In this document: in pieces, positions 1 through 63,016 of the stretch | Position numbering within the stretch: position 1 is the first letter of the stretch | Layout of the letters: the number at the start of each line of letters is the position of its first letter | From: an uncultured virus (IMG/VR IMGVR_UViG_2675903231_000002) | Lineage: Duplodnaviria > Heunggongvirae > Uroviricota > Caudoviricetes | Strand: one strand, 5' to 3' | Virus record (IMG/VR): IMGVR_UViG_2675903231_000002 | Length of the DNA stretch: 64,000 nt | Translations under genes and position numbers: made by a program | Notes under the pieces: generated by a model | The model's database searches: none | Told to the model about the DNA's origin: nothing | Seen by the model: only the letters and a program-made list of their open reading frames with translations

Positions 1-426
1 TGTGTGGTAATGCTTGAGCTTCTGGACGAAGTGTGCGAACGGGCTCGCCGCGCAGGCCAAGTTGGTCGGCGAGTGGGTCTTGGTTTGACATACGAAGGAT
101 TGAGCGGCGGATTCTATCGGGCAAAGACGATTTCGCAGCCCTCAAACAGGCCGGAGGAACTGTATCCCACATTGTCGGCGTTGCTCGACCGGCATTGGGA
201 TGGGAGTGGTGTGCGTGCGGTATCCGTATCTCTCGACCTGCTGATATGGGATACAGCGGTGCAGTTGTCCCTGTTTGATGATGTGCCGCGGCGAAAGAGG
301 TTTTGGCAGGCCGTTGACGGGATTCGCGCGCGTTTTGGTGAAACGGCTGTTATGCGTGCCAGCAGCTTGATGCCTGCCGGGCAGCTTCGTGAACGCGCGC
401 AGAAGATTGGGGGTCACTGGGCGTGA
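1..426 (+). CDS. Y-family DNA polymerase (DinB/UmuC-like), C-terminal part, 5'-truncated by the window edge
   Basis: Little-finger-like region followed by QLSLF clamp motif and 'AVDGIRARFGETAVMRASSL...IGGH' tail typical of Bacillota PolY2/UvrX; followed by a YolD-like gene. Confidence 0.85.
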   Translation, partial: CVVMLELLDEVCERARRAGQVGRRVGLGLTYEGLSGGFYRAKTISQPSNRPEELYPTLSALLDRHWDGSGVRAVSVSLDLLIWDTAVQLSLFDDVPRRKRFWQAVDGIRARFGETAVMRASSLMPAGQLRERAQKIGGHWA

Positions 427-752
427 CGTCGATCCGGGACGGTAACATCTTTGAGGCCATGCGGATTCTGCTTCCAGAACACAGAGCAACAACGCAACGG
501 TATCGTGAATGGAGGTCGCGCAGGCGGCCACCGGAGCTGTCTGCGGACGAACTGTCGGAGATGCAGTACAAACTGTCGGAGGCGATTGAGCTGCGCCGGC
601 CGGTGAGACTTGTGCTGTTTCATCCGGACGAGGATGTGGTGATTATGGGCGTTCCTGAGTTGAAAGGAGGACGTTTGTGGTTATGGCGGGATGATGGAAA
701 CCGCGTGCTGGTGGATTGTCGTCGGTTGATGCGAGTTGAAACTCGCTGTTGA
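423..752 (+). CDS. YolD-like protein
   Basis: 'MRILLPEHR' and 'PELSADEL' motifs; overlaps the Y-polymerase stop codon (GTGA). Confidence 0.75.
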   Translation: MTSIRDGNIFEAMRILLPEHRATTQRYREWRSRRRPPELSADELSEMQYKLSEAIELRRPVRLVLFHPDEDVVIMGVPELKGGRLWLWRDDGNRVLVDCRRLMRVETRC

Positions 753-790
753 TTTTGGGCAAAAAAAATCCCGCAGCAGCGGGTGTGTTC

Positions 791-1060
791 TCAGGCATCG
801 ACATCATGCATCAACCCATCCTGGCCAGACAGCCATTCCCGCGACACCTTGGATTCAATGGACGATAGAACTTCGGCTGCAAATTCGCGTTGCCCATTGA
901 AATTGTTATATTTTCCAATTGCGATGTCCTCCAACGCCCCAACCGCCTCCCGCAGCGCGTCGGCTAAGGTGTGGATGGTTTCTGCATATGCTTGCGGTGT
1001 ACGTGGACCGTTTTTCACTTGTTCAGGCGTCAACATCCGCTGTCGCTCCTTTCTCCCCAC
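791..1060 (-). CDS. hypothetical protein
   Basis: 89-aa ORF in a coupled run of phage-like genes; similar in composition to the C-terminus of 1023..1565. Confidence 0.45.
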   Translation of the reverse strand: MGRKERQRMLTPEQVKNGPRTPQAYAETIHTLADALREAVGALEDIAIGKYNNFNGQREFAAEVLSSIESKVSREWLSGQDGLMHDVDA

Positions 1061-1565
1061 GAACCTTGGCGAGTGTGTCGCGGGCGATTCGCTTCATTTC
1101 ATTCCCGAATTCAGTAACACTCGCGAATCCCATAGACATCGTTGCGTTTGCGATCCGTTCCAACGCCTCCAGCATGAGGGCGTTTTGTGTGTTTGCCTCA
1201 TCGGCACGTTGTTTCCATGTCTCCATCAGCCCAAAGGACTGTTTTAGATGTCCAATAATGCGTTTTGCTGCACTCGGTGCTGTCTCTTTGGTGATCATTC
1301 CATGTGCATCAATTGTTGAACGCAGCGCACCTACGATCTGCCGCTCAAATAAAGGGCGATTTATCACTTCTTTACTCAACTCCGCATTCCGCCGTTGCAG
1401 GTCCCGTATCGTTGCCACCAGATCCCGCAGGCGCTGCGCTACAATCTCCGTGATCTGATCTGCTTCAGACCCGTCGCCGGGAATCGCCATAATCATGTCG
1501 GCTACCGTCTCCGTGCGCTGGATCTCGTCGTCAGTCAACACGTTTCCGCTCATCGACTTCACCAC
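1023..1565 (-). CDS. hypothetical phage-like coiled-coil protein
   Basis: 180-aa ORF overlapping its neighbours. Confidence 0.5.
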   Translation of the reverse strand: MVKSMSGNVLTDDEIQRTETVADMIMAIPGDGSEADQITEIVAQRLRDLVATIRDLQRRNAELSKEVINRPLFERQIVGALRSTIDAHGMITKETAPSAAKRIIGHLKQSFGLMETWKQRADEANTQNALMLEALERIANATMSMGFASVTEFGNEMKRIARDTLAKVRGEKGATADVDA

Positions 1566-1836
1566 CTTCTAGGAATTGGCGCGCCCGGTGGCCGCCGTCA
1601 GTCTGACGATAGGCATAGAATTCGATCACACGTATTGCCTCCAACAGCTTCTGCGCCAGCCACGGGCCTTCGGTGCGAGATGTGGCAATGAATTTGGCGT
1701 CGCTTGAACGCCAAATGTCACCTGTGATACCGCGCACAATCGGATTCAAACCATTAGTACCAGCCGACCATGGCCCCTTCGTCGCCTTCTCAGCCAACTC
1801 CAGATACTTCTCAGCACGTTCGCGGATACTCTCCAT
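1531..1836 (-). CDS. Ead/Ea22-like phage protein
   Basis: 'LAEKATKGPW...DAKFIA' motif. Confidence 0.55.
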   Translation of the reverse strand: MESIRERAEKYLELAEKATKGPWSAGTNGLNPIVRGITGDIWRSSDAKFIATSRTEGPWLAQKLLEAIRVIEFYAYRQTDGGHRARQFLEGGEVDERKRVD

Positions 1837-2003
1837 TACGCCATCATCCCCCTGTACCGCTCCCGACTCCGCAGTCCCTGCGAATAGTGATACCGCACCG
1901 CATCCCTCGACATCCCGGCCAACTCTGCGATCTCCGGCCAGTCCAGCAACTCCACCGCCCTCATCATCAGCACCGCCACCTGCGCTGGCTTCAGCGTCCG
2001 ATC
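1836..2003 (-). pseudogene. C-terminal sigma-70 region 4 (HTH) fragment
   Basis: Hand translation RTLKPAQVAVLMMRAVELLDWPEIAELAGMSRDAVRYHYSQGLRS...; in-frame stop immediately upstream at the edge of the duplicated unit. Confidence 0.5.
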
Positions 2004-2163
2004 TAATTATCCAACAGTTCTATAGATATTTGGCGCTATTTAGGCGCCAATATATCTCCGGAACAATGTAGACAACTCCCGCTTCGGTGCAAGTGAGCAT
2101 ACACATCAATCCTCCAGCGCAAAATACCGATTGCACTTAACTCCCCTAGGAGGATGATGGACA

Positions 2164-2361
2164 GTGCCGAGTCGCAACCAATACGTTTCTCCGCAAGTGA
2201 GGAACACCATCGAGCAGATGAAATGGGAGATTGCAGCGGAGTTCGGCGTCAATTTGGGGCCCGACACCTCTGCTCGGGAGAACGGCTCCGTGGGCGGCGA
2301 AATCACGAAGCGGCTCGTGGCGTTCGCGGAGGAGCACATGTTCGGGCAGATGAGGAGATAG
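2164..2361 (+). CDS. alpha/beta-type small acid-soluble spore protein (SASP)
   Basis: 'KWEIAAEFGVNLGPDTSARENGSVGGEITKRLV' SASP signature; AGGAGG RBS. Confidence 0.95.
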   Translation: MPSRNQYVSPQVRNTIEQMKWEIAAEFGVNLGPDTSARENGSVGGEITKRLVAFAEEHMFGQMRR

Positions 2362-2570
2362 GTGGTGGTTGCGGAGGCCCTGGCGGCTGGGCGTTTCGCC
2401 GGCGCGTCGGCGGATGTGAGCAACATAGGCTGGATCGGTGGGCCAGGATGCGCATGGGATACAGTCTCTCCTCCTGGACCCACCCTATCTTAAGGCCGGG
2501 GTTCCCATATGCGAATACAAACGCCCCCACGCCCCCTACACAGTAGTGAACATACCCCTGTTAATGTGTT

Positions 2571-2756
2571 TCAGTTAGGTTTCAGGTATTCGTTTTTCTG
2601 GTCGATGACGACTTCCTTGCCGTTGAATCTGAATTCAGCCAAAGCACGTAATACAGACGCTTTCACCACGAACCCCATCCCGGTGCCTGGTTGGGTATTG
2701 AGAGAAAGGGATTCCTTAATGTCTTCGATGGCATTGTTGAATTGTTTGATATCCAT
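2571..2756 (-). CDS. small hypothetical protein
   Basis: 61 aa with strong AAGGAGG RBS. Confidence 0.5.
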   Translation of the reverse strand: MDIKQFNNAIEDIKESLSLNTQPGTGMGFVVKASVLRALAEFRFNGKEVVIDQKNEYLKPN

Positions 2757-3479
2757 GTGATTTCCTCCTTATCGTCTCTCTATTCCAAGGAAATTCGATA
2801 ACACTCGATAGCGCCCGGGCCCTTTGGGCCAAACCTATAAAACCCCTGTTCGCCTTCCCACACCTCATATCCCCTGGAACATTGAGTGGGCCAAATACCG
2901 AATTTCCCCTCGCCTAATTATTCAACAGTTCGCTAGATGTTTTGCGCCATCTGTGCGCCAATATTTCCACGGAACGAAACCGCCCATTCAGGCGGCCTCA
3001 AGCCTGCACAAACCGGGACAACTTCCGTTCCTTGTCGACGTATTCGCAGAAAGCTCAGGCTCGCCGAAGTTCTCCTTCCCGAATGTGTGGAAGGGGCATA
3101 CAAAAAAGTCCTCCTGCGCAAAATACGATTGCACTTAACTCCAACAGGAGCAGGAGGGATCGGCGGGCCAGGGTGCGCATGGGATACAGTCTCTCCTCCT
3201 GGCCTCACCCTAATCATAAGGCCGGGGTTCCCATTTGGGAATACAAACGCCCCCACCCGCCGCTATGGGATGGGGGCGCGATCATGGGAATGTACCTAAC
3301 CCGGTGTCGGTGTAGCCCGAGCGAACCAACACATCCATGGATGATTCTCCACCGCCAGCCCCTCCGTCGCTGGCGGCATTGACAGCCACGGTTGCTGTCC
3401 TACCCACCTGATATTATGGGCGCATAGCCTTGAAACTAAATCGAAAGCCCCAAAGCCACGCTCAAAACGTCCTGGCCTC

Positions 3480-4136
3480 TTATTCAACTGCCTGAATGCA
3501 CTCCGGCACGTCGTTCCGAGGATTCCCGACGAGTTTAGGCACGCGGTACCAAACCATATCATCGGCAGGGTAGGGCTCCAGGATCGGCAGCAGTTCGTCC
3601 AGACTGTGTGCGGCACGGTCAAGGTACAGGTCGTAGTCCTGCTTTCGAAGTATTACCGGCATCCGGTTGTGTAACACCGACATGGCAAGATTGGACTCGC
3701 ACGTGAGTATGCTGCACGTGGACAGAGGACCATTTGGCGAGTCCCACGTATCGTAAATACCGGCAAGCCCGAAGAAGTCGCTGCTCTTGACTCGGATTCG
3801 ATACGGCTCCTTGGTGTTTCGATGCCACTCGTAGTACCCGTCGCACGGCACAATGCACCGTTTGCGCTCCACCAACCGCCGCAAGACAGGATTGACTTTC
3901 AGTGTCTCCACCCGCGTGTTAATGGGCTTCGGACCGCCTCCGTCCCACGCCGCCGGCTGAAGCCCCCATTTGAGCGCCCCGAACCGGCGCTCGGTTCCGT
4001 CGGAGAGGATGGCCGGGATCTGCTGGCTGGGGGCGATGTTGTAGCGCAGCGGATAGTTAGCCGTGACTCGACCCAGGCGGAAAAACTTGATAACCTCCGA
4101 CCAGTCTTCGTACGCGAAGGAAAAGCGGCCGCACAT
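3480..4136 (-). CDS. SOS response-associated peptidase (SRAP/HMCES, YoqW-like)
   Basis: N-terminal MCGRF, YNIAPSQ, RCIVP.DGYYEW and HNRMPVIL motifs. Confidence 0.95.
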   Translation of the reverse strand: MCGRFSFAYEDWSEVIKFFRLGRVTANYPLRYNIAPSQQIPAILSDGTERRFGALKWGLQPAAWDGGGPKPINTRVETLKVNPVLRRLVERKRCIVPCDGYYEWHRNTKEPYRIRVKSSDFFGLAGIYDTWDSPNGPLSTCSILTCESNLAMSVLHNRMPVILRKQDYDLYLDRAAHSLDELLPILEPYPADDMVWYRVPKLVGNPRNDVPECIQAVE

Positions 4137-4148
4137 CCTCAGTCACCC

Positions 4149-5066
4149 CTAGCTTATCCAACGGCACTCGGCCGGATCTTTGCCTGGTACAAACCCGCGG
4201 AACGCAACCGTACGAAGGTGGTGCCGTTCCGTCCGTTCAAGGTACTGTATCTTGCAGCACAGGACGGGCGCAATCCATTGCACATCGCGGTCCTTCGCCG
4301 TATGGATCTCCTTTGCTACCTCAAGAAACGCCGTTTTCTCTTCAGCTTTGAACCCGTATTCCACCACCGCCACTGGCTTGTTCCGAACGGTCGGAAAGTG
4401 TAGGCCAACGACAAGGCCAAACTGTGGTTCGCGACGATACCCGAGGATTACGGCGTCGATCTCCTTCCAGTTCTTGATCTTCAGCCAGTTTGTCGTCCTC
4501 GTATCGGGAATATACAGGGAATCCTTACGCTTGGCGACGATGCCTTCCCAGTTCCTTTGCTCAGTCAGCCTCTTCATTTTGATACCGGCTCCGTCAACAA
4601 ACATCGTCGGTGTGAGAATGTGGGACGATTGGACCAGGTCAAAGAGTCGCTGCTTGCGGTACAGGAGCGGTTCGTTCATGTGGCTCCTGTCGGTGTACAG
4701 TACGTCGAACGCAACAAACGTCACGGGGTGCGTTTGCATGGCCCGATGAATGCGGCGAGGATCCTGGATCCGGCCGCGGTATTGGAAGTCGTCGAACACA
4801 CTCCGGCCGTCACGGAGGCAGATGCCTTCACAGTCGAGAACGGCAGAATAGGCACGGATGGCACTCGCAACCTCACGGAGTTCCGGGAAGCGGTCTGTGA
4901 CAATCCTGCCGTTGCGTGTGAAACCCTCCACACGGTCTCCCTGCTTGTGCAACAGGATCCGCCAGCCGTCCCATTTGGGCTCGAAGATGTAATTGGGATC
5001 GTCGAATGCTTCCATGTGCATGTTCGGAAGCATGGGATTGATCGGAGTAAACAGCATAGGCCTCAC
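4149..5066 (-). CDS. ATP-dependent DNA ligase (LigD ligase-domain / LigB-like)
   Basis: EPKWDGWR adenylation motif, AFDVL, EGIVAKRKDS.Y, WLKIK. Confidence 0.92.
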   Translation of the reverse strand: MRPMLFTPINPMLPNMHMEAFDDPNYIFEPKWDGWRILLHKQGDRVEGFTRNGRIVTDRFPELREVASAIRAYSAVLDCEGICLRDGRSVFDDFQYRGRIQDPRRIHRAMQTHPVTFVAFDVLYTDRSHMNEPLLYRKQRLFDLVQSSHILTPTMFVDGAGIKMKRLTEQRNWEGIVAKRKDSLYIPDTRTTNWLKIKNWKEIDAVILGYRREPQFGLVVGLHFPTVRNKPVAVVEYGFKAEEKTAFLEVAKEIHTAKDRDVQWIAPVLCCKIQYLERTERHHLRTVAFRGFVPGKDPAECRWIS

Positions 5067-5204
5067 CTATGTCGATCGTGGCAGTGCTGCAGGGATTTGG
5101 CCATAGGGGAATAGTGGTAACAGGCAGCTAAAAATGTGCGGAATCTGTTTCCATCCGACAAAGGACCGCCTAAGTATCGCAAAAATCTGTCCTTTTTGGG
5201 GCGG

Positions 5205-5747
5205 TCATCGTCTTCCCTGCCGCCACAGATCGGCCAGGAATCGCTTCTCCATCTGACGCATGGCGGCTAGGTGTGCGTGAGCCTTGACCCACCCCCGCCC
5301 ATCGTACACGTCGCGGTAGCGATCGTACACCTCTCGATAGCTCGACCGGTGCATGATCATCCGCGTGCCGACGAGGTACATGGTGGTTTTGAGACGCGGG
5401 TTGTAGGCCGTCGCGACGCCCCTCTGCCTGCGCTCAGCCTTTCCCTCTTTCACAGCAAGACCAGCATACCTCCACAGCGCCGGGATCGAGCGGAAACGCG
5501 TGACGTCTCCGATTTCGGCCATCATGAGAGCAGCTAGGACAGGCCCGACACCGCGCACGCTCTCAAGCCACGGCCATTGAGGATGCTTCTGCACTGCATC
5601 CGCCATTCGGCGAGAAACCTCTTTTTCGAGATCAGCCAGGGCTGCTTGAGAGTTTTTGGCGTCGTCATCCTTCGAAGCTATACGGCTCAGACTCATACGT
5701 GCCCGTTGGATCGCCCTGTAGCTTCGAGCTAAACCGGTCAATGACAC
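5205..5747 (-). CDS. Stand-alone IS110 C-terminal / Nop-like RNA-binding domain protein (TasA-like), no RuvC domain
   Basis: 'WLESVRGVGPVLAA..MAEIGDVTRF', 'LWRYAGL', 'YNPRLK', 'HAHLAAMR..EKRFLADLW'; only 180 aa with its own GGAGG RBS. Confidence 0.7.
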   Translation of the reverse strand: MSLTGLARSYRAIQRARMSLSRIASKDDDAKNSQAALADLEKEVSRRMADAVQKHPQWPWLESVRGVGPVLAALMMAEIGDVTRFRSIPALWRYAGLAVKEGKAERRQRGVATAYNPRLKTTMYLVGTRMIMHRSSYREVYDRYRDVYDGRGWVKAHAHLAAMRQMEKRFLADLWRQGRR

Positions 5748-5769
5748 GATTCACGCCTCCAATAAAGAT

Positions 5770-5856
5770 GCCAGGCGCAGAATGAGTAGGTGCCTCGCGG
5801 CACAATAACATCAGGCGCCTGGCCTCTATCAGTATACGACACTGCGCATCTGGCTA
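5770..5856 (-). ncRNA. Candidate guide RNA hairpin (tigRNA / bridge-RNA-like)
   Basis: Minus strand GCCAGGCGC-ctgatgttatt-GTGCC-GCGA-GGCAC-ctactcattct-GCGCCTGGC: 9-bp outer stem, symmetric 11x11 internal loop, GNRA-capped inner stem. Confidence 0.5.
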
Positions 5857-6279
5857 TCACTCGAACGCGATTCGCAGCGCCTCCTCTGTTGGCTCCTCCG
5901 CGTGCGCCCAAAAACGGCGAATAGCCTCCTCCAGGCCGTAGAGATCCACATCCGACAGCTCACGGATCTTGTTGACCAGGACCTGCCCATCTATCTCCCA
6001 TTTGCTGTCCAGGTGGTTGAACCGGATTGCGTCCGCCACCTCAGCCCATATCAGGTGCGGCCGGTCGAGCATCATCCCGTTGCACGCGTCCATCACCGCG
6101 CAAATCTCAGACGCAGAAAAGCGCTCCCGGAGACTCCGCCTGGCGTCGTCTACCAGGCGGAAGTAGCGGTACAGAGCCCGCTCGATGGCGTCGTTGCGGC
6201 CCTCGTAGACCTCCGCAGACTGCTCCAGACGAGCGATCAAGTCTTCCGGGAGACGAACGGAAAGTGGTTGCTTTGGCAT
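5857..6279 (-). CDS. Ribbon-helix-helix (CopG/Arc-like) domain protein
   Basis: N-terminal 'PLSVRLPEDLIARLE...RNDAIERAL'. Confidence 0.65.
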   Translation of the reverse strand: MPKQPLSVRLPEDLIARLEQSAEVYEGRNDAIERALYRYFRLVDDARRSLRERFSASEICAVMDACNGMMLDRPHLIWAEVADAIRFNHLDSKWEIDGQVLVNKIRELSDVDLYGLEEAIRRFWAHAEEPTEEALRIAFE

Positions 6280-6296
6280 CTTCGCCCTCCTATCCC

Positions 6297-6500
6297 TCAG
6301 CAGATGGTGCGCCCGTCTGGACCGCAGCCAGGCCCGTAGATGATGGCCGGGTGCGCTGCCCTCGCAAGCCCCCGCTCCTCCAGCTTCCCGAAGACCCGGT
6401 ATGCCGTTTCCATTGCGTCCTCATATGTCCTGTGCATCCGCCGATACCGAGGGAAGCGTTGCACCCGCGCACTTCCCCAAAAAGTTAACTCGTACTTCAT
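6297..6500 (-). CDS. small hypothetical protein
   Basis: 67 aa, GGAGG RBS, co-oriented with its neighbours. Confidence 0.55.
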   Translation of the reverse strand: MKYELTFWGSARVQRFPRYRRMHRTYEDAMETAYRVFGKLEERGLARAAHPAIIYGPGCGPDGRTIC

Positions 6501-6573
6501 CGTCTTCCTCCCTCTGCCCGATGTGCGGGCATGTCATGTATTTCGTGGGCCGCCGAAGCGGCCCGGGAATGCC

Positions 6574-7050
6574 TCAGTCGTGGAACGTCTGCCAAAATTC
6601 TTCCCACCCGGCGCCATCCGGGAGCAACCGCAGCCTCCGCAGCGCTTGGTCCGCGCTTCCGTTCCACTCGGCGGCATCATCGTACAGGCGAACTGTCCGC
6701 CCATCCTCCGCCGTGGCTACTACCACGCTATCCGAGGGGCCGAGGTTAGAGACCCCGACTCGGTCCAGCTCGGACTGGATGACAGCCTCCACGCCCGCCA
6801 TCTGGAACGCCTCGGCTTCATCCCGGGTGTCGAAGAACTCGACCCGCTCCAGCGAAACCTCTGAGTCGTCCCAAGCGACCCATCGTCCGTCTGGCAATCG
6901 CGTGATGTACCACGTCACATCCCCGTTCTGCAAAACCGCCTGGGACGCCTCGAACAGCTGCGTCTCAGATCCGAAGCCGAGCGCCTGCGCAAAATCAAAC
7001 ACGGTCATACTCCTCGTCTCCTTCTCCCGTCTCGAGCGGGTTTGATTCAC
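6574..7050 (-). CDS. acidic hypothetical protein
   Basis: ORF in operon; likely start at MTVFDF. Confidence 0.6.
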   Translation of the reverse strand: MNQTRSRREKETRSMTVFDFAQALGFGSETQLFEASQAVLQNGDVTWYITRLPDGRWVAWDDSEVSLERVEFFDTRDEAEAFQMAGVEAVIQSELDRVGVSNLGPSDSVVVATAEDGRTVRLYDDAAEWNGSADQALRRLRLLPDGAGWEEFWQTFHD

Positions 7051-7559
7051 TCGGCCCAGCCCATCACTTCGTCGACCTGGCCGATCACGTCTTCCCAGTC
7101 GACCGGCCCGTAGTTGTACTCGATGAGCGGCTGAGTCAGGCCGTACCGGATGCGAAGCTCATCCTTCACTGACGCCTCTCCGTAGCCCAGCCACGCCTCC
7201 TTGCCAATGTCCTGCGCGATCTCCGCCAACATCTCGGCGAGCGGTCGCCCAGCAAACGTCAGTATGCCGACCTCTTGCGGCCGTCGCACCCACACGATCT
7301 CGGTCGGCAGAACCAGCACGGCGCCCTCGTCCGCGTCGAAATCCTCGTCCTCTGACTCCTCACCTTCCAGAGCGACGACCACCACATCGTTCATGTCGGC
7401 ACCGCGGGACTGGAAGTACCTCTCCAGGCCCCGGAGCGTGCGGCAGCAGGATACCCCGCGCCTCTCGTCGAAGCCGTCCCACACTGTGGACCGCCAGTTG
7501 CTCGGGTCGAGCAGTTCCTGCGGATTCCGGCTTGCCTCCTGGATGCGGTAGTACGTCAC
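7047..7559 (-). CDS. acidic hypothetical protein, possible ADP-ribosyltransferase-like fold
   Basis: GTG start at 7559 with GGAGG; YYR...GVS...EG pattern; shares a PTxIVWVR motif with 8246..8767. Confidence 0.55.
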   Translation of the reverse strand: MTYYRIQEASRNPQELLDPSNWRSTVWDGFDERRGVSCCRTLRGLERYFQSRGADMNDVVVVALEGEESEDEDFDADEGAVLVLPTEIVWVRRPQEVGILTFAGRPLAEMLAEIAQDIGKEAWLGYGEASVKDELRIRYGLTQPLIEYNYGPVDWEDVIGQVDEVMGWAE

Positions 7560-17576: not shown

Positions 17577-18847
17577 GTCAGCTACCCCAGCCCTAAAGGG
17601 CGGGGCTTGCACCTAGCCTTACGGCTGGCACGATAGGCTGGCTGACAGCAGCCCGCCAGTAGCAGCCATGCCACTGCTGGCAAGGTACTTCCGGGCAATG
17701 TTGCGAGCCGCGTTCAAATCAGCATTCAGTTCAAATCCGCAGTTCCGGCACAAGAAGCGTGATTGCGTCCGTCGGTTAGAACGGTGGACGTATCCGCAAC
17801 ATGAGCACATCTGCGACGTATGGCGAGGGTCAATGCCAACGACAACGCAACCCTTCTCCACCGCCTTGTATTTCAGGAACGAACGTAATTGTGCAAACGT
17901 CCACGAATGCAAGCGGCGGCGGGACTCTCGTCCGCGTTGCTTGACGCGCGTGCGGATGTGATTCAAGTTCTCGACGACAATCACAGTGCCGGGTTCAACG
18001 GAATCGACGATACGCCGACTGAGAACGTGGTCGCAATCGCGGCGGAAGCGGTGAACCTTCCCGGACAGGCGGCGCAAATGCCGCTTGGCCGAGCGAGTGC
18101 CTTTCGCCTGAAGCGCACGCTTCAATCGGAAATACCTGCGGTCAATCTCTTTCCAACGCTTCTCACCGAGGAAGTTGGCGGTGGATGTGACAGCGGGATG
18201 GTTCAATCCCATGTCCACGCCGACGACATTCCCGGTTGGGGAGAAGGAGGCATCTGGAATGGTCACCACGAGATGCAGCCAAAACCGGCCCTTTCGATAG
18301 ACCAGATCGGCGCTATCGAAGCCAGTAGCTTGAGCGAGGAGACGATCCGCATGTGGATTGCGAGCGAATTCAACCGACTGACGGCTTGCAACCGTAGAAA
18401 GGCTGACAACACTCGCGTTCGGGTGAAATGTGTATGTCCGCGCATCGTACCGGATCGGGACCAAGTTCCCGTGGGGGCAAGACGTCTTGCTGCCTTTCTT
18501 CAACCGGTTCAAAGCGGACTTGACGGCCTCCGTCGCACGCACCCGCGCGGCAATCAAAAGTTGCGCAGGCAAGTCCGGATGTTCCACACGGAGAGTGCGG
18601 TACGTCTCGTGGTGCAGCGTCACACCGTTCTTACAACGCTTCTGCCAGCCAACAGCACAGACAGCGTTAAAACAAGCGGTGTGCTCCACGAGGGTCCGCA
18701 ACAGAATTTCCTCCTGTTTGGTTGTGGGTTTCAACAACAATCGGATCGTTCTCCTCATATTTCATACCCTAGCACATTTCGCAGAAAGAGGATGGCGACG
18801 CTCCTCCCCATGCCTAAAGACAGGGGTCTCCGCGCCGGTATAGACTG
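17577..18847 (-). mobile_element. IS200/IS605 family, IS1341-type (tnpB only) element 1
   Basis: Subterminal hairpins (ggagacccctgtctttaggcatgggg at left end; gccccgccctttagggctgggg at right end); ends in TGAC and is preceded by TTAT. Confidence 0.85.
17619..18758 (-). CDS. tnpB: RNA-guided endonuclease TnpB
   Basis: RuvC D-E-D (VGVDMG, VVENL, NADLNAARNI) and zinc finger CSCCG...CRNCG. Confidence 0.95.
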   Translation of the reverse strand: MRRTIRLLLKPTTKQEEILLRTLVEHTACFNAVCAVGWQKRCKNGVTLHHETYRTLRVEHPDLPAQLLIAARVRATEAVKSALNRLKKGSKTSCPHGNLVPIRYDARTYTFHPNASVVSLSTVASRQSVEFARNPHADRLLAQATGFDSADLVYRKGRFWLHLVVTIPDASFSPTGNVVGVDMGLNHPAVTSTANFLGEKRWKEIDRRYFRLKRALQAKGTRSAKRHLRRLSGKVHRFRRDCDHVLSRRIVDSVEPGTVIVVENLNHIRTRVKQRGRESRRRLHSWTFAQLRSFLKYKAVEKGCVVVGIDPRHTSQMCSCCGYVHRSNRRTQSRFLCRNCGFELNADLNAARNIARKYLASSGMAATGGLLSASLSCQP

Positions 18848-18937: not shown

Positions 18938-20141
18938 GTCATGAACCCCAGCCCTAAAGGGCGGGGCTTGCAGTTGTAGCCTGCGCTATACCGCGTACGG
19001 CTGCATGACTTCAGCCCTACGGCGAATGTTCACCGCAGCGATGGTGTCGGCTGGGCCAGCGAACCCACATTCGACACACTCAAAATTATCCCTTGTGGGG
19101 CGATTGCGTTTGTCCGCATGACCGCAGCTTGGACATGTTCGAGATGTATTGCGCGGATCGACGAACACCACGGGCACACCCGCCAAACGTGCCTTGTACT
19201 CGATGAAGAAGCGAAGCTGATGGAATGCCCAGGAATGCTGGGTGCGACGCTGAGCCTTGCGAACCGTTATCCGGTCACGAATGCCCTTGAGATCTTCAAG
19301 TGCAATCCCGCGCCCGGTGTCTTTGGCTTTCGCAACCAGCACTTTCGCAATGCGATGGTTTACGTTGGTGGCGAAACGGGCTTCCTTGCGGCGACGCTTC
19401 TTCAGCAGACGCTTGGCAGACTTTGTGCCTTTCGATTGCAGGCGTTGGCGAAGGCGTGCGTGGCGATGGCGCAGTCCGTTCACGTGCCCTCCAGAAAACA
19501 CCTCGCCGTCGCTGTCTGTCGCGATGTTCTTAATGCCCAAGTCCACGCCAAGAAATCCATTTGGAGCACCTTGTGGTGGATCTGGGACATCCACAACGAC
19601 AGCGAGGTAGAAGGTGCCATCGCGGTAAATCAGGTCGGCTTGTCCACGAATCCGCTGGAGGCGTGCAGCCTGGTACTCGCCAAACAAAATGGGGACCAAG
19701 ATGCGGCCGCCAAGCGTTAGGATGGACACGCGATCAAGACCTTTCCAAGAAAGGAGGCGTTGGTCATATACGATGGCGCCATGCGGCTTGAATGTCGGCT
19801 TTATCGACTTGTCTCGCTTGTACGCTTCGCACGCCTTAGCGATAGCACGGACGGTCATTTGGGCTGAAAGCCCAAATTCCTTGCGGATACTGTCGTACAC
19901 GAGCTTTTGCAACCGGATCTTGTTTGCAGTGCGATGTTCGAAAGCCACTTCCGCAATCGCATTGCAAGCCGCATTGAACCGTTCCATCGTCTCAAGCAAC
20001 GCTTGGTGCTGTTCAGTTGTGGGTAGCAGCTTGACCATCAACGTCAGGTTCATGCCGTTATTATAGCACAAATCGTTCAATACAATAAGAGCGCGTTTCC
20101 TCCCCATGCCTAAAGACAGGGGCTTCCGCGCAAATCATATG
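18938..20141 (-). mobile_element. IS200/IS605 family, IS1341-type element 2
   Basis: Same terminal hairpins as element 1; right end in TGAC; left boundary approximate. Confidence 0.8.
18986..20053 (-). CDS. tnpB: RNA-guided endonuclease TnpB
   Basis: LGVDLG, IALEDL, ADTIAAVNI; CPSCG...CVECG. Confidence 0.95.
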   Translation of the reverse strand: MNLTLMVKLLPTTEQHQALLETMERFNAACNAIAEVAFEHRTANKIRLQKLVYDSIRKEFGLSAQMTVRAIAKACEAYKRDKSIKPTFKPHGAIVYDQRLLSWKGLDRVSILTLGGRILVPILFGEYQAARLQRIRGQADLIYRDGTFYLAVVVDVPDPPQGAPNGFLGVDLGIKNIATDSDGEVFSGGHVNGLRHRHARLRQRLQSKGTKSAKRLLKKRRRKEARFATNVNHRIAKVLVAKAKDTGRGIALEDLKGIRDRITVRKAQRRTQHSWAFHQLRFFIEYKARLAGVPVVFVDPRNTSRTCPSCGHADKRNRPTRDNFECVECGFAGPADTIAAVNIRRRAEVMQPYAV

Positions 20142-43891: not shown

Positions 43892-46800
43892 TTACGGCTG
43901 CGAAGGTTGGACGAAATACCACTGAGGTCGATCTGCTGTCACGAGAAAGTCGTTGTTAACGAGGTCATTCTCGCCACAATCGTCATAGGCTTTGATGGTG
44001 ACACTGATGTGTACCCCGTCAGGGAGTTTCGGCATGATGGTCTCTCCCTGCCAGAACTGCGGCAGATTGGACGCCGGGTGCATTTCCACCGTCCATGAGG
44101 TATCGCCCTGCGCGTCTACTGTGCCTACACTGGCTCCGCCGTTGACCGAAAACACCGCCTCCACCTTGGTGGGTTGTGCGTCCGGGAACTTCACCGCAAA
44201 GGCGAATGGTGCTTGCACTCGAAGCGGGATAGGTGCGTACCCGAGCATCTCATTGGTCACAGGTAGGTGCACCTGGTTTCCTGGATACTGCTGCGTCAGT
44301 TGATCTGTCGGGTTGAAAATCCCGTCCACTTCGAGATTAGTGATGGTAAGTGGCACCCTTTTTGTATCGGTCAGTTCACCGTTCGTATAGGTCTCGTAAA
44401 TCTCCGTGCCATCTCCACTTGGATCACAGCTGATCGTGGAGTACGAATCCCCTACCCTGCCTTGTCCGGTATCCGTCACCGTCACTTGATTGCTTGCTGC
44501 CAATACCACGCCTTGTTTGTCTACCAGTAGAGCAATGTACTGAAGCGATGTCCCGGGTACCGGACTGTATGGGACCGAAATGCTTAGGCCGTCCGAGTTC
44601 GGCTTCCATGTCGTGGAGACGGCCTTTTGCCACGTCTGGACAATCCGGATGTCCACTGTAGCAGAACCGCCAAGACTCTGATTCACGAAGTCAGCATCCG
44701 TTTGGACGAAGGTCACCTTGAACTGCGTCTGAGCAGGATATGTGACATTCTCCGGTAAAGCTTGCAGTGTGAAATTGTCGGGTGGCGTGACGTTGTTGAA
44801 CCACGTTACGGACACTGGCGACGATGTAGCAGAGACGTTCTGCGCCGGCGTAGTCACCGTATACGACTGTTGTTGGTAGATCGGCTGACTTGGGTTTTCC
44901 TGCAACACGTATTCCGTCCAGTTCCAGGTGCCGACCGCACCGGAAAACCAGCCGTTTGGAAGCTGCAACACATATCCAGTAGTTGTCCATCCCGACGGGT
45001 TAGACGTGGATAGTATGGTTTGTCCACCGGATGTAACAGTCAAGCTCACTCCGGCAGAATTGTTGCTTGTACTGGCAAATCCGTTATTGTTCATGGCCTC
45101 AATAATGACCTGGTGCCGTCCGGCGGGCAGAGTGATCGTGGCACTGGATGTGTTGGGTATACTGCCCCCGACACCCCCAGAGTTACCACTTTGCATGACC
45201 GGCTGACCGTCCACGTAAACCTGAGCATAGTCATTAACGTAGGGCACAGAAAGCGTGATCGACTGTGTTTGCGACAAGCTAAACGTTGATTGGAAAAAGA
45301 CTGTTCCGTTCGGCTGTGACGTCGAATTTGATACCCAAATTGAACCACCGTAGCTACCGGCTTGCGCTTGTTGAGTGAACACCGATGTCGGGACGTAACT
45401 CGGTGCATTCTGGAATGTCCAGAAGGCAAAGTCGTTTGACACCGTCCGCGTCACTGTTAGAGGTATAAACCCGCTTCCGGGCGTCAAGTTTCCCGGAAAA
45501 GGAGTAACCGTGCCCGACGAAAGAGAATACTCCGAGAGAACTATAGGAGGATTTGACTGATTCCACGGACTATAGTTCGGTGGCACATAGTACCCAATTA
45601 ACCCATTGGAATATGGATCATACGCAATATCTAACATGTCCACCGGCAATGACCATAGTTGACCGGATGGTGTGAACTCTAATGAATTAAAGTTGGAATA
45701 GAAACCTGAAGCCTGAATTCCGTTGACATATAGATTCCCAGATACAGTATCCACAACAGAGGGCGACTGATACTCATACCAAGCCTGATTGGTACTGATA
45801 TCATTGTAAGGGGACGACGGAGATTGTCTTGGATCCCACAATATCCAATAAGGGTTGTATAAATTGACACCGCCCTCAAATAGAACATCCTGATTTGCAG
45901 GGTCATAGATCAACCAACCAATATCCCCGTGACCACCAGCATTGCCAATAGGCGTCCAAGTCTTCGTGGTGAATGAATACACATAGAGATCATTGTCCAC
46001 GGAGTCTCCTTGATGACTAGCGTGAACTGATTCATAAACCAAATTCAAAGGCGGGTAATAAGTGAAACCTGCCATATGACCATCACCAAATGGTGGATGA
46101 TCAACTGGACTGGACCAAAGACCCGTTGATAAATTCAATACCGCAAATTGGCCGCTGGAGTTGTACGCGATAATGCTGTTTGTTAAGGAATTGTATCCAT
46201 TCGGTACCGCGCTCCCAACGGGAGAAGGATAGTCGGTCCAAGCCCCTGTAGCAATCTTATATGATGCAATTCCATCCGATGATTGAACCCAAACAACGCC
46301 GTTATTTGGAATACCGACTGTGTTTGGATACCCCTGGACATATGACGGTGTTGCAATAGGCGTTAGTGTCCCAGTTGAAGTATTGAATACTTCAAGTTGA
46401 CGACTTGTGGAATTGTATCCATAGACAAGCTCAGTGTAAAAAGCGGCCCCACTCAATCCTGGTATTTGCGGATTCCCAGGTTGGACCACCCGGGCGACAT
46501 ACGTATCTGTCTCCACCTGATTCTTGGTTTGCAATGCGTTAAGCACAGTCTGCCCTGGCTGGCCGGTGGCGATGGTCTGCCCCGTCGTCTGATCCACAAT
46601 GTCGATCACATACCCGGAAGGCAGATTCGCTGCTGTAGCCGTCAGCACCGATGTGTTGTTGATTGGCAGCTGCGTGGGATTCGCAGTCAATGTGATCCCA
46701 TACCAATCCACAGAGACCGTGTTGCTGCTGATCAAAGCACCCGACGTACCGGAATTCGACGAGATATAAGCCACAAACGTGTCCGTCCGCGGTATTGACT

Positions 46801-49759: not shown

Positions 49760-49890
49760 GCCAATTCCCCCGTTGAAAGGCCAAGTTAACAGCTCGACCG
49801 TAACACGCAACAAACGCAAAAACGCGCAACTTTTGTGCCAACTTTCTGCTTGCTGAAAGCGCTTGGAAAAGGGGGGGCGTACGAGCAACC

Positions 49891-50055
49891 TTGACGTATA
49901 TTTCGGCTGTGCTACACTAAACATGAAAAGAGAGCCGAAGGCGGCGACCTTCGACTCTCGGGCACCGACGCCTTGAGCGTTATCCCTGCCCGTAAAATCG
50001 ATCGGGCAAGTAACCGCCCCACCGGCGCTAACCTATGGGGGCGGTTACTTGCGTC
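49891..50055 (+). ncRNA. Putative type I antitoxin RNA with promoter
   Basis: TTGACG-16-TACACT promoter, hairpins, terminator caagtaaccgcccc...ggggcggttacttg overlapping the toxin 3' end convergently. Confidence 0.6.
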
Positions 50056-61271: not shown

Positions 61272-62061
61272 TGGCAGCCTCCGACCGCATCCATCCGCGG
61301 CGCGCCTCGAAGAACGTCCGATGGTGCAACAAAGTGCCGTCCGCCAGTAGCGTGTGCAGATACATGAGCACCGTTGTCGCGGCCATGAGGTTGGTCATCA
61401 GGCGCTGCGGATTGGAAACGACCACTTCGCCGCACGAGACCTCCGTTGGCAATCGGTCCTCCTCGATCAGATCGGGGAACACCTCGCCCGGAAACGGCAG
61501 AACGTCTTCGCCACGAATGCGGACCCCGACAACCACCTGACCTTCCCAGCCAGAATCCTTGATCTTCGCCAGCTGGTATCGGTCCACATGCCCGGGATCA
61601 TCCGGCACGGTGACGGCGCTGTTGCCGCTGTCGATGTACACAACGTGGTTGAGACAATGCAGCTGCTCGTGCAGGATGCGGCGGGTGCTACCGTTGTCTA
61701 CTGCGCCCACCACAATCGTCCCATCTGCTACGCCGATTCTTTGAAGGTTTGTCTCCCGCGTCAGATACTCCGGATAGGCCGCGATGTCGAGGCCGTAGGC
61801 CCTGGAGTACCGCTCCGCCAACACACTGGCCTTCTTGCGGCCAATGTCCTGCGGGAGGAAGTATTGGCGGAGGAGATTTTTCTCTTCCACCACATCCCCG
61901 TCTATCAGCAGCACTCCCGGCACCTTGCAACCCTGCTCTTTGAGCGAGTAGAGCAGGCGGGCGACCTGCTGTAACACGTAGCCGCCCGTGCCGCCCACAC
62001 CAACGAGGATCAGCCGTGTGCGTTCCGGGTCCACGACGCGAACCGGTTTTACTGTGCTCAT
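61243..62061 (-). CDS. ThiF/E1-like adenylyltransferase
   Basis: LVGVGGTGG, IDGDVVEEKNLLRQ, KASVLAERY, GAVDN, SC. Confidence 0.9.
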   Translation of the reverse strand: MSTVKPVRVVDPERTRLILVGVGGTGGYVLQQVARLLYSLKEQGCKVPGVLLIDGDVVEEKNLLRQYFLPQDIGRKKASVLAERYSRAYGLDIAAYPEYLTRETNLQRIGVADGTIVVGAVDNGSTRRILHEQLHCLNHVVYIDSGNSAVTVPDDPGHVDRYQLAKIKDSGWEGQVVVGVRIRGEDVLPFPGEVFPDLIEEDRLPTEVSCGEVVVSNPQRLMTNLMAATTVLMYLHTLLADGTLLHHRTFFEARRGWMRSEAAIEQLLEVSV

Positions 62062-62987
62062 ACGGGGGTCACCACCGCAGTAATGGGACCGTCGAAGACG
62101 GCCGAGGCCTCCACCTTGACGAACTTGCCGCCGCATGAGTACCGGAAGGCAAGAGTGGGCCTCTCCCGATCCGCTTCTCCAACTACCCCGTACAGACCCG
62201 TTCGTACCTCGTCCTCGTCGTCTGTCGCTGACCAGTAGGCGGGTAGCCGGCCGTGCGAGTGGATGTGAGCGACCACGAAACGGTGTTCAGTTTCCATGAA
62301 GCCCTCGCCTTGTACGGTGACGGCCGAGGCCTTTTGCTCGGGCCACACCACATCGTAGCCAATGTCGGTGTCGTACACGATGTACGCCAGGTGCTCAATG
62401 TCCGGCTCGGACTGAAAGCGTTGCACAATCTCGCTCAGACACCAGACAGGAATTTTCGGTACGAACAGATGGAGCGGCGCACGCAGGCCCGTGCTTCCGT
62501 ACACGGGTGCGGCGAAGATGCCTACTTGTGTTTGCCGAACCTCATAAACACGGCCATCCCTGTCGAGCAAGTAGTACACCGGGGGCACCGGCGGGGCCGG
62601 CGGCTCCGTGTACACGGTGATCGCCGCCCCTTTCTTGTGGCCCTTGAGTACGGGTACGATGTGGCCCGTTTCCTTGTCATAGACCATCTCTGTGCGCTCT
62701 TTCGTGAGCTCCGGGAAGGTCTGCTCCAGCCAGGCCCGTACATCCTCCAGTTTCATCGTCCGGCTGGGTACTTCGAGCCGGTGACCCGCGTAGTAGACCA
62801 CACGATCAATTTCGTACTCGTCCGGTTCTGGTTCCTCAGCCGGTTTGGCTGTGGCCTTGGCAGACGTGGTACGCGTTGTCGGCTTCTTCACGGATTTCTC
62901 TGGCTCCAGCACCTGTGGAATCAGGCCCTTGCGCTCGTCCTCCGGCAGAAGGTCGAAAATCGTGGTTTGCTGGATGTTCGTGTTCAT
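62058..62987 (-). CDS. Ubiquitin-like domain fused to JAB/MPN metallopeptidase
   Basis: JAB motif E...HSH......S..D (HIHSHGRLPAYWSATDD); upstream 'FPELT...KKG' Ubl-like domain. Confidence 0.8.
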   Translation of the reverse strand: MNTNIQQTTIFDLLPEDERKGLIPQVLEPEKSVKKPTTRTTSAKATAKPAEEPEPDEYEIDRVVYYAGHRLEVPSRTMKLEDVRAWLEQTFPELTKERTEMVYDKETGHIVPVLKGHKKGAAITVYTEPPAPPVPPVYYLLDRDGRVYEVRQTQVGIFAAPVYGSTGLRAPLHLFVPKIPVWCLSEIVQRFQSEPDIEHLAYIVYDTDIGYDVVWPEQKASAVTVQGEGFMETEHRFVVAHIHSHGRLPAYWSATDDEDEVRTGLYGVVGEADRERPTLAFRYSCGGKFVKVEASAVFDGPITAVVTPV

Positions 62988-63016
62988 GTTCCATGTCTCC
63001 TTTTGGTTTAGATGAT

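Follow-up and report, generated by a model that had tools for sequence, protein, structure and literature searches.

A compact TasA-type TIGR-Tas candidate with a single stem-loop guide on a plasmid-like bacterial contig

TIGR-Tas systems were first described in 2025 (Faure 2025, PMC12045711) and, according to Xu 2026 (bioRxiv 10.64898/2026.09.09.750476), have come to light chiefly in phages, in CPR bacteria and on metagenomic contigs. Nuclease-free TasA proteins that use stem-loop guides have already been described, solved by cryo-EM and found to repress transcription (PMC12045711; bioRxiv 10.64898/2026.09.09.750476), and stem-loop TIGR-TasA is also treated by Guan et al. 2026 (bioRxiv 10.64898/2026.08.11.744272). 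As the first two of these sources set it out, a stem-loop tigRNA carries two short spacers (8-12 nt). Each spacer begins after a box C (CCN or CUU) and is followed by a box D (UG); the pairs at the junctions are C:G, and the flanks are palindromic. Xu 2026 adds a CUU motif at the stem base, and remarks that natural targets could not be found for want of genomic context. Our stem-loop comparators were PlTasA (from a Peromyscus leucopus gut contig), BlTasA and MbTasA.

The locus described here adds a compact new member to this already published type of system. It lies on the minus strand of the window, by which we mean the whole analysed stretch of 64,000 nucleotides (IMG/VR record IMGVR_UViG_2675903231_000002). 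The first-pass annotation had read it as a minimal, nuclease-free module with a single guide. That reading is supported, since the protein passes the Tas family model and the hairpin upstream of it matches the tigRNA plan; the novelty attached to it was overstated, TasA with stem-loop guides being in print (PMC12045711; bioRxiv 10.64898/2026.09.09.750476). We consider it quite probable that the locus is a minimal TIGR-Tas system of the nuclease-free TasA type. Its main parts are as follows.

5205..5747 (-): tasA, 180 aa, coiled-coil hairpin plus Nop-type C-terminal domain, no nuclease
5756..5760 (-): Shine-Dalgarno sequence GGAGG, read from the sequence, 8 nt 5' of the GTG and 9 nt 3' of the hairpin
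5770..5823 (-): candidate single stem-loop tigRNA unit, 54 nt (from sequence, fold, genome-wide rarity and conservation in the relative X2)
5831..5860 (-): promoter-like site GTGATA-18-TATACT, weak (consensus scan, 1 site against 0.6 expected in shuffles)

The start codon of tasA is GTG and its frame is closed one codon upstream by a TGA (5753..5751), so that there is no room for a fused nuclease domain. The corresponding position in X2, a 91%-identical metagenome contig, reads ATG-TCG-CTG (M-S-L), which supports the GTG start, and the public gene model of 133 aa is probably 47 codons too short. The sole Pfam match of the 180-aa protein is PF02371 Transposase_20 (residues 61-141, E 3.2e-12). 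The Pfam scan found no PF01548, the N-terminal DEDD/RuvC domain, and neither Pfam nor the upstream frame check found an HNH or RuvC nuclease, fused or in the tasA frame. The open reading frame, its closed 5' end and the lone PF02371 match bear out the earlier description of a 180-aa protein with only the IS110 C-terminal or Nop-like region. The same match invites another reading, a truncated IS110-family transposase remnant accompanied by a bridge-RNA relic, as do the 'transposase' labels of the protein's PHROG matches (4285 and 2199) and the frequency of IS110 copies in related genomes.

The family models and structures favour a Tas protein over such a remnant. NCBIfam NF052498.1 TIGR_Tas_endo scored 147.7 bits (cut-off 100) in an alignment that covers positions 23-213 of its 215-position profile, whereas NF033542 IS110 scored 52.6 bits against a cut-off of 140, short of IS110 membership. 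With phmmer against the PDB, the best match was TasR (9mty_A, E 1.2e-23, query 22-178 aligned with chain 134-293), and TasH (E 4e-11) and IS621 (E 0.06) were weaker. The AF2 model (pLDDT 97.6, pTM 0.90) superposed in Foldseek on the coiled-coil and Nop part of TasR 9mty with a TMq of 0.93 and an rmsd of 1.7 over 183 columns, above TasH (TMq 0.78-0.86) and IS621 (TMq 0.73-0.74), and the weak match to Nop5 1nt2_B (E 0.69, TMq 0.39) does not place the protein in the Nop5 family. The first-pass annotation had proposed this structural comparison, and it came out in favour of its reading.

That annotation had also raised the possibility that the homologues would be full-length IS110 transposases. 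They are not: the Tas model is matched by 61 of 61 aligned relatives, and most of their loci carry TIGR arrays. Searches of 40 related genomes gave only weak IS110 matches (E 1e-9 or worse), in frames mostly longer than 360 aa and in a few shorter ones. Taken with the missing DEDD domain and the closed frame, these tests refute the transposase remnant, to which we assign almost no probability. Because the Tas cut-off was passed, the IS110 cut-off was failed and a nuclease domain is absent, the 180-aa protein is a Tas family member without a nuclease, that is, a TasA. Judged by homology and predicted fold, it corresponds to the coiled-coil and Nop core that dimerises and holds one guide RNA in the solved relatives.

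Among 151 listed hits other than the protein's own record, the only shorter one is P0061 (159 aa), whose match begins at query residue 61 and which may be a fragment; the others span 190-663 aa. A single-protein query of GTDB species representatives returned no match, and a query with alignment A2 returned 19 loci, mostly in CPR or DPANN MAGs. No match was found by tblastn in the plasmid collection at E <= 1e-8, and no homologues of the tasA neighbour genes (one for a DNA ligase, the other for a 140-aa protein that matches no family) were found in the relatives' loci. In a quick version of the tree, built on 106 of 139 sequences (95 random and 11 fixed), the 180-aa protein falls in no supported clade, and we therefore claim no origin for it.

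The C terminus is short. The protein ends 5 residues past the last conserved helix. W175 is followed by 5 residues, where 60 relatives have a median of 39.5, and the Y..xH tail motif found in 45 of those 60 is missing. Tails of 8 residues or fewer occur in only 2 of 159 loci, and one of these, L057, has a real stem-loop array. The missing tail, together with a guide array of one unit where relatives have many and a target that was not found in the own genome, could be taken to mean that the locus is a decaying relic, a TasA whose array has shrunk and whose function is lost. Several observations make this improbable to us. Absence of the Y/H processing loop is a feature of stem-loop-binding Tas clades that the 180-aa protein shares, and the rule published by Xu 2026 (bioRxiv 10.64898/2026.09.09.750476) is the same, namely tail loss in Tas proteins that bind stem-loop guides. 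The 138-nt intergenic region 3' of the stop holds no remnant of an EGLP..Y..GH tail in the frames listed. The protein is confidently modelled, as given above, and keeps every invariant or near-invariant column of the 61-sequence alignment. Finally, the hairpin is kept in the 9%-diverged X2, and the first three codons differ from X2 by three changes that are all synonymous.

The hairpin of this TasA-type locus reads, from 5823 to 5770 (-), GCCAGGCGC / CUGAUGUUAUU / GUGCC GCGA GGCAC / CUACUCAUUCU / GCGCCUGGC. It has the plan that the first-pass annotation gave: the outer stem has 9 bp, the internal loop is 11x11 and the inner stem, capped by GCGA, has 5 bp. Both loop strands fit CC-N9-TG with the 9-mers proposed there. 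Its parts, in the order of the transcript, are these.

5815..5823 (-): outer stem, 5' strand GCCAGGCGC, whose last C (5815) doubles as the first C of the box C of spacer A
5813..5815 (-): box C of spacer A (CCU), from the sequence; arrays of relatives have CCA here
5805..5812 (-): spacer A GAUGUUAU, 8 nt, or 9 counting the U of CCU
5803..5804 (-): box D of spacer A (UG), with G5803 paired to C5790
5790..5803 (-): 5-bp inner stem closed by a GCGA tetraloop, where relatives have a 4-nt loop repeat
5788..5790 (-): box C of spacer B (CCU), from the sequence
5780..5787 (-): spacer B ACUCAUUC, 8 nt, or 9 with the preceding U
5778..5779 (-): box D of spacer B (UG), with G5778 paired to C5815
5770..5778 (-): outer stem, 3' strand GCGCCUGGC, from sequence and fold
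5765..5767 (-): CUU trinucleotide, candidate processing mark, 2 nt past the 3' base of the outer stem

All elements by which stem-loop tigRNAs are defined (spacers, boxes, C:G pairs and a palindromic stem) can be recognised in this hairpin, which on homology and fold has stem-loop tigRNA architecture. CCU-N8-UG occurs twice, and every box C cytosine is paired with a box D guanine. The distance from the one to the other is 13 nt, as in the relative L013 (40% identity), which has 34-nt arrays. With a single unit, variability of spacers within an array cannot serve as evidence, and the third letter of box C (U) is indistinguishable from a spacer letter. In RNAfold, 121 nt around the hairpin gave -47.7 kcal/mol (z = -2.74), with 4 of 200 shuffles folding as well, and the minimum-energy fold contains an additional weak 4-bp pairing of spacer A with spacer B. 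The CUU 3' of the hairpin is present in X2 too, and by analogy with published stem-loop guides it may act as a processing mark here. The first-pass annotation had also drawn attention to two GCCA-N9-TG motifs; these are present at 5854..5840 and 5823..5809 (-), with a third at 5264..5250, but they are uninformative. The motif is common, with 69 matches in the window against 42.7 expected, and for this reason we give it no weight.

A Tas relative need not have a guide of its own, and the hairpin could then simply act in cis: it might attenuate or terminate transcription of the upstream gene, form a 5' structure that stabilises the mRNA, or serve as an inverted-repeat DNA operator for a dimeric protein such as the upstream gene product. 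Arrayless tas loci are common, arrays being detectable in 6,685 of 20,096 tas loci according to Xu 2026 (bioRxiv 10.64898/2026.09.09.750476), and this hairpin is intergenic, with a U-rich stretch, AUCUUUAUU, on its 3' side. When G:U pairs are allowed, a looser descriptor has 111 matches genome-wide, and in another loose scan matches came about once per 3 kb, so the shape by itself is not rare. Against a cis element, boxes C and D stand on both loop strands at the exact family spacing with C:G junctions, and the pattern is restricted to the tas strand, the opposite strand reading CA-N9-GG. The loops are AU-rich and unpaired between GC-rich stems, and the terminator scan did not call the hairpin at 5823..5770. 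The boxes are also much rarer than the shape, as only 1 of 128 same-shaped hairpins in the genome, the one upstream of tasA, has them on both loop strands. We therefore think a cis element unlikely, though less so than a relic, and continue with the hairpin as the candidate guide of the TasA protein.

Rarity and conservation both point to such a guide. A strict descriptor (C-N10-TG twice, a Watson-Crick outer stem of at least 8 bp and an inner stem of at least 4 bp) matched once on both strands of the 3.79-Mb genome, at the hairpin 5823..5770. In the X2 contig the upstream gene and the hairpin are both kept, as are the M-S-L start and a run rich in G that resembles a Shine-Dalgarno sequence; compared with X2, the hairpin has 1 change in 54 nt and the flanking gene 52 in 533 (9.8%; P = 0.027), the sole hairpin change being a U>C at 5810 in spacer A. 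Conservation across homologues, which the first-pass annotation had asked about, holds in X2 but does not extend to 31 viral relatives, near whose tas genes a motif-plus-stem descriptor showed no enrichment (0.28 per kb against 0.37 per kb away from them). The nearest relatives, which have dual repeats, thus do not share a hairpin of precisely this form.

Neither the locus nor its contig nor the whole genome shows a second unit that exceeds background, so there is no tandem array, and no periodic GCGAG[CT] triples at 35-37 nt occur in the genome. Two further candidates were set aside. One, at 5267..5219, has fitting boxes but lies inside a conserved coding helix and is not above chance, because such boxes turn up roughly once in every kb of each strand; the other, at 5860..5802, overlaps the main stem, and its box C cytosine (5853) is changed in X2. 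Rfam gave nothing at E <= 1 within 4000-7500, and a search of sequencing runs listed no RNA run that contains the stretch.

The locus resembles the described stem-loop TasA systems in most respects, as far as their published descriptions go. Like them, it has a nuclease-free, Nop-only protein with a coiled coil and no Y/H processing tail, and a guide unit that runs from a stem through box C, spacer and box D to a linker, a second box C, spacer and box D, and the closing stem. It also has a CUU near the stem base, and by analogy RNA-guided DNA binding and repression would be expected of it. Its differences from them are its box C of CCU, its 180-aa length with neither a disordered N-terminal extension nor an extended CTD5, and its setting in a conjugation-gene-rich contig of a bacterium with a 3.79-Mb genome instead of a phage or CPR genome. 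PlTasA, compared by its published description, has 13 units, in contrast to the one unit here.

Some features of the guide are closer to those of TasR proteins. According to Xu 2026 (bioRxiv 10.64898/2026.09.09.750476), the tigRNA of PateTasR is likewise about 54 nt long, that of CsTasR has a 5-bp stem separating its spacers, and both systems share with this locus symmetric box pairs, from box C cytosine to box D guanine, and a short C-terminus. Both, by the same account, have (dead) RuvC domains where this protein has none, and a box C of CUU where it has CCU; the CTD insertion that holds the inter-spacer stem in CsTasR is absent here. TaTasR (PDB 9MTY) is the best match in sequence and fold, with a box C of CC+N and a box D of UG, but its RuvC is missing from the 180-aa protein, and chain residues 1-133 have no counterpart. 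The likeness to IS110 and IS621 is confined to the related RNA-binding domain PF02371 and to guides held in internal loops of a structured RNA; the protein lacks a DEDD/RuvC domain and a Tnp serine domain and fails the IS110 cut-off, and the hairpin has one loop pair where the bridge RNAs of these recombinases have separate target and donor loops. Archaeal box C/D snoRNPs (Nop5) are more distant still, with a weak fold match, no fibrillarin-binding N-terminal domain and no fibrillarin or L7Ae partners seen at this locus, whose expected target is DNA, not RNA.

The host is a bacterium with a 3.79-Mb, 99.87%-complete genome, far larger than CPR genomes, and the 91-kb, low-GC contig that carries tasA is plasmid-like and rich in conjugation and partition genes. 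We searched the own genome for targets with both half-site orders and gaps of 0-4 nt. The 18-bp site made of one loop and the reverse complement of the other, which the first-pass annotation had proposed as a check, did not turn up: no site had 2 or fewer mismatches in 18 nt or at most 1 in 16 nt, and the best (3 mismatches in 18 nt, 2 in 16 nt) are at chance level. Exact 16-mers in IMG/VR gave 28 matches in one order and 64 for three gap variants of the other; we rejected these as targets, as they are at chance level, lie in loci of 18-49% GC (one of 55%) and include few 18-mer extensions.

In the mechanism that we propose, the tasA mRNA would carry the hairpin as its 5' leader, and its promoter may be the promoter-like site at 5860..5831; transcription from this weak site would, on its sequence, begin near the hairpin base. 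We infer that the 180-aa TasA binds the hairpin, and a TasA dimer would do so at its two CCU/UG box pairs. A host RNase may trim the RNA near the stem-base CUU, since the Y/H processing tail found in dual-repeat relatives is missing from this protein. A single DNA site of 16-18 bp would then be recognised by the two 8-9-nt spacers, each pairing with a different strand, and the TasA complex would stay there and block transcription or replication, a block and not cleavage because there is no nuclease. As there is only one guide, and a 9%-diverged relative has it almost unaltered, the target is probably fixed, a competing mobile element or a regulatory site, and not a changing repertoire.

It is possible, though we put it forward only tentatively, that the locus represents the smallest natural form of such a system: a 180-aa TasA guided solely by the 5' leader of the mRNA that encodes it, carried on a conjugative plasmid-like replicon of a non-CPR bacterium and acting as a fixed-target, RNA-guided repressor in plasmid competition or regulation. 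By occupying the leader at 9 nt from the Shine-Dalgarno sequence, the protein would also exert feedback on its own translation. The locus may have arisen when a dual-repeat ancestor independently switched to a stem-loop guide and lost its Y/H tail. The locus changes nothing that is known of how the Tas family works, but a complete one-guide candidate system in a nearly complete genome offers useful genomic context. If the strain is in culture, the natural role of TasA could be addressed with one guide and one knock-out, and a 180-aa protein with a 54-nt guide would be a very compact template for programmable DNA binding.

A local-fold survey of the relatives showed no common hairpin, and in its course the GCGAGC repeats of their loci came to light. 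In 80 viral loci this repeat core occurs 834 times on the tas strand against 56 on the opposite one, mostly at a spacing of 35-37 nt, and, of 179 loci of relatives, 129 contain dual-repeat TIGR chains. Aligning 464 units taken from 57 loci gives the consensus WG-CGAG-CCA-N8-RWG-AAAC-CCA, with a 4-nt linker between spacers, for example AAAC, ATAC or NGAA. Unlike these dual-repeat arrays, with their Y/H-tailed proteins, the present locus has no 36-nt tandem array and no such tail, and a 9-bp and a 5-bp stem replace the edge and loop repeats. One likeness to the GCGAGCC repeats can nevertheless be read from the hairpin, in that the first two pairs of its outer stem (G:C, C:G) would equal the two deduced pairs of the edge repeat.

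The gene beside the hairpin had been described in the first-pass annotation as encoding a 180-residue, TasA-like Nop-domain protein, and homology and predicted fold both bear this out.

5205..5747, minus strand: tasA, 180 aa, GTG start

Pfam recognises PF02371 alone in the protein. The NCBIfam scores separate Tas from IS110 in favour of Tas: TIGR_Tas_endo gave 147.7 bits (cut-off 100), and the IS110 model 52.6 bits, below its cut-off of 140. Among solved structures, the best sequence match was TasR 9MTY (E 1.2e-23, query 22-178 on chain 134-293), followed by TasH (E 4e-11) and then IS621 (E 0.06), and an IS110-transposase identity was rejected on these scores. Structure prediction with AlphaFold2 (alignment of 61 sequences, pLDDT 97.6) produced a model that opens with two long helices at the N-terminus and continues with a helical domain; Foldseek matched this model to 9MTY with a TMq of 0.93 and an rmsd of 1.7 Å, as against 0.78-0.86 for TasH and 0.73-0.76 for IS621/ISCro4. 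Going by these matches, the protein corresponds to the coiled coil and Nop portion of TasR minus its RuvC domain; the first ~133 residues of 9MTY, which form that domain, have no counterpart in it. Coiled-coil plus Nop without RuvC is how TasA is defined in the available text of Faure 2025 (PMC12045711).

HMMER recovered 4,403 relatives at E <= 0.001 from 1.84 billion representatives, the closest among the matches listed being 44-48% identical. With the TasA protein as query, tasA is the sole Tas-type gene found in the 3.79-Mb genome, and the hairpin adjoins it; the only other match, on contig 51, is an IS110-type frame of 434 aa. The public gene model at this locus is 133 aa. Several features argue for the 180-aa form: residues 2-47 can be aligned with those of relatives, R17 and E41 being nearly invariant; a GGAGG Shine-Dalgarno sequence lies 8 nt ahead of the GTG; and a related contig from X2, a wood decay metagenome run, has an ATG-TCG-CTG (M-S-L) start at the matching position. 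A longer protein is impossible because TGA at 5753..5751 shuts the frame one codon upstream.

The hairpin shows every element first attributed to it, and its form fits the plan of a tigRNA, the two-spacer guide of these systems. Its layout, with boxes in brackets, is given below.

5823..5770, minus strand: the hairpin, 22 nt upstream of the tasA start
GCCAGGCG-[CCU]-GAUGUUAU-[UG]-UGCC GCGA GGCA-[CCU]-ACUCAUUC-[UG]-CGCCUGGC

A 9-bp GC-rich outer stem encloses an internal loop of 11x11 nt, beyond which a 5-bp inner stem is capped by GCGA, and CC-N9-TG is present on both strands of the internal loop. The minimum-energy fold (121 nt) reaches -47.7 kcal/mol (z = -2.74, with 4 of 200 shuffles equally good) and includes four extra weak pairs joining the two loop strands. 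On both sides, the first C of CCU pairs with the G of UG across the loop. As far as the available text of Xu 2026 (bioRxiv 10.64898/2026.09.09.750476) describes them, the PateTasR tigRNA shares this C:G junction geometry and, at ~54 nt, the size of the 54-nt hairpin, while the 5-bp inter-spacer stem is a known variant seen in CsTasR. Read on the opposite strand, the loop sequences are CA-N9-GG, without the boxes, so the functional strand is the tas strand. CUU occurs 2 nt past the stem, and the same text places a processing mark at a CUU at the stem base. A promoter-like GTGATA-18-TATACT ends 7 nt ahead of the stem; with one site found against 0.6 expected, it is weak evidence for a promoter.

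The hairpin shape by itself is not rare. A loose motif-plus-stem scan of both genome strands gave 2,369 matches, and a tighter descriptor allowing G:U pairs gave 111. With a strict descriptor (Watson-Crick stems, outer >=8 bp, inner >=4 bp, C-N10-TG on both sides), the hairpin was the sole match in 2 x 3.79 Mb, and in a motif-free search it alone of 128 same-shape hairpins carried C[CT]...[AT]G on both loop strands. Because the descriptors were derived from the hairpin itself, these counts describe specificity and are not formal P values.

An 859-nt X2 contig spans window 5770-6356 and departs from it at 53 letters, with 3 gaps besides. Only one change falls within the 54 hairpin letters (5810, U>C, the third letter of spacer A), compared with 52 in the remaining 533 (P = 0.027). 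Beyond the hairpin this contig reads UCUUUUUAUGGGGGGACGGGC-AUG-UCG-CUG, retaining the CUU, a G-rich Shine-Dalgarno-like run and the M-S-L start; changes in the first three tasA codons are synonymous. A second X2 contig, spanning tasA 5371-5585, has 19 differences in 215 letters. With one relative compared, this hints at constraint on the hairpin rather than amounting to a covariation test.

The relatives mostly carry another guide type. In the 80 IMG/VR loci retrieved with the small alignment, 834 copies of GCGAGC lie on the tas strand and 56 on the other, the usual interval being 35-37 nt, and 464 units from 57 loci give the consensus (R)(W)G-CGAG-CCA-N8-(R)(W)G-AAAC-CCA-N8. Units of this sequence, in which CCA is box C and (A/U)G is box D, make up dual-repeat TIGR arrays, matching those in the available text of Faure 2025 (PMC12045711). 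Dual-repeat chains are present in 129 of 179 loci (viral, metagenomic and genomic); of the others, one has a stem-loop array and 49, many on short contigs, have no clear guide type. Three loci of relatives 40% identical (L013, L014 and L034) have units of 34 nt, CCW-N8-TG-NGAA, not the usual 36 nt; they share with the hairpin a 13-nt distance from box C cytosine to box D guanine.

L013:2090-2580 (also L014, L034): 34-nt-period array, 8-nt spacers
L057:1870-2320: stem-loop tigRNA units with variable palindromic stems, IMG/VR relative with tail-less Tas

At L035, the locus of another relative, a dual-repeat array is accompanied ~280 nt after tas by a hairpin whose outer stem is 19 bp long and whose loop strands both contain C-N9/10-TG; this hairpin may be a terminator or a stem-loop unit standing alone.

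Guide type appears to follow the C-terminal tail. TasA has 5 residues beyond the last conserved helix, against a median of 39.5 in 60 aligned relatives, 45 of which conserve the motif ..EGLPxRxPYxxExLGH.., and no tail remnant was found in the listed frames of the 138 nt after the tasA stop. The Y and H of this motif may be the processing dyad that Xu 2026, in its available text, places on the C-terminal loop of dual-repeat Tas and reports absent from all stem-loop clades. Tails of <=8 residues occur in two of 159 loci with a complete C-terminus: L057, with at least 6 stem-CCA-N9-TG-ATAC-CCA-N9-TG-stem units upstream of tas, and L052, whose guide type is not clear. The absent tail and long hairpin stems of our locus therefore fit the tail/guide rule in that text. 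L070, sister of L057 in a quick tree, has dual repeats.

Taken together, homology and fold point to a real, well-formed, single-guide TIGR-TasA system, as the first-pass annotation had proposed in describing a single guide unit beside a nuclease-free Nop protein. This kind of system is already known from the literature available to us; what is new is an unusually compact example in an unusual host setting. The hairpin would be transcribed as the tasA leader, bound by a TasA dimer and trimmed by a host RNase; its two spacers would pair with opposite strands of a 16-18-bp DNA site, where bound TasA could repress sterically, by analogy with MbTasA and dead TasR, for which the available text of Xu 2026 (bioRxiv 10.64898/2026.09.09.750476) demonstrates repression. 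Searching both half-site orders in the own genome and IMG/VR gave no target for the spacer pair above chance. The host is GC-rich and the two spacers AU-rich (25% and 37.5% GC), and this difference may point to a foreign or promoter-like target.

The 91-kb contig carrying the locus has a GC content of 51-59%, versus 63% for the genome. It encodes T4SS pilin-like proteins, a TraG/VirB4-type P-loop ATPase, ParA and a ParM-like actin, together with UvrD- and RecD-like helicases, a tyrosine recombinase, a methyltransferase and a PIN protein. No capsid or tail families were found on it, and its single weak 'terminase' PHROG match is the TraG-like ATPase. From this gene content, we take the contig to be all or part of a conjugative plasmid. 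A search of 72,556 plasmids turned up no Tas relative at E <= 1e-8; the GTDB species representatives, searched with one peptide pattern, held 19, mostly in CPR and DPANN MAGs.

5857-6279, minus strand: gene upstream of the hairpin, 140 aa, no Pfam or PHROG family
1-5066: DNA-damage gene cluster directly downstream of tasA, comprising a Y-family polymerase C-terminal part (IMS_C), an SRAP peptidase (3480-4136) and an ATP-dependent DNA ligase (4149-5066)
17619-18758 and 18986-20107, minus strand: adjacent TnpB/IS605 OrfB-type genes, 379 and 373 aa, the first with a Cas12f1-like TNB domain
43892-49924, minus strand: large ORF, 2,010 aa, no Pfam or PHROG match, within the conjugation-gene region
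62058-63754, minus strand: adjacent Prok-JAB and Prok-E2 family D proteins, weak matches (E about 1e-5)

The N-terminus of the 140-aa protein, PLSVRLPEDLIARLE, resembles what we take to be a ribbon-helix-helix motif. Its gene stays beside the hairpin in the X2 relative, and no homologues were found in the 179 relatives' loci. Prok-JAB and Prok-E2 proteins are typically paired in bacterial modules for ubiquitin-like conjugation or defence. An 86-nt intergenic stretch (5037-5122), which separates tasA from the ligase gene and contains a terminator-like hairpin (5071..5055), is found again, with 6 differences, on another contig (85 kb) from X1, the likely source run, which belongs to a different study than X2, and on a short X2 contig; it looks like a small repeated element.
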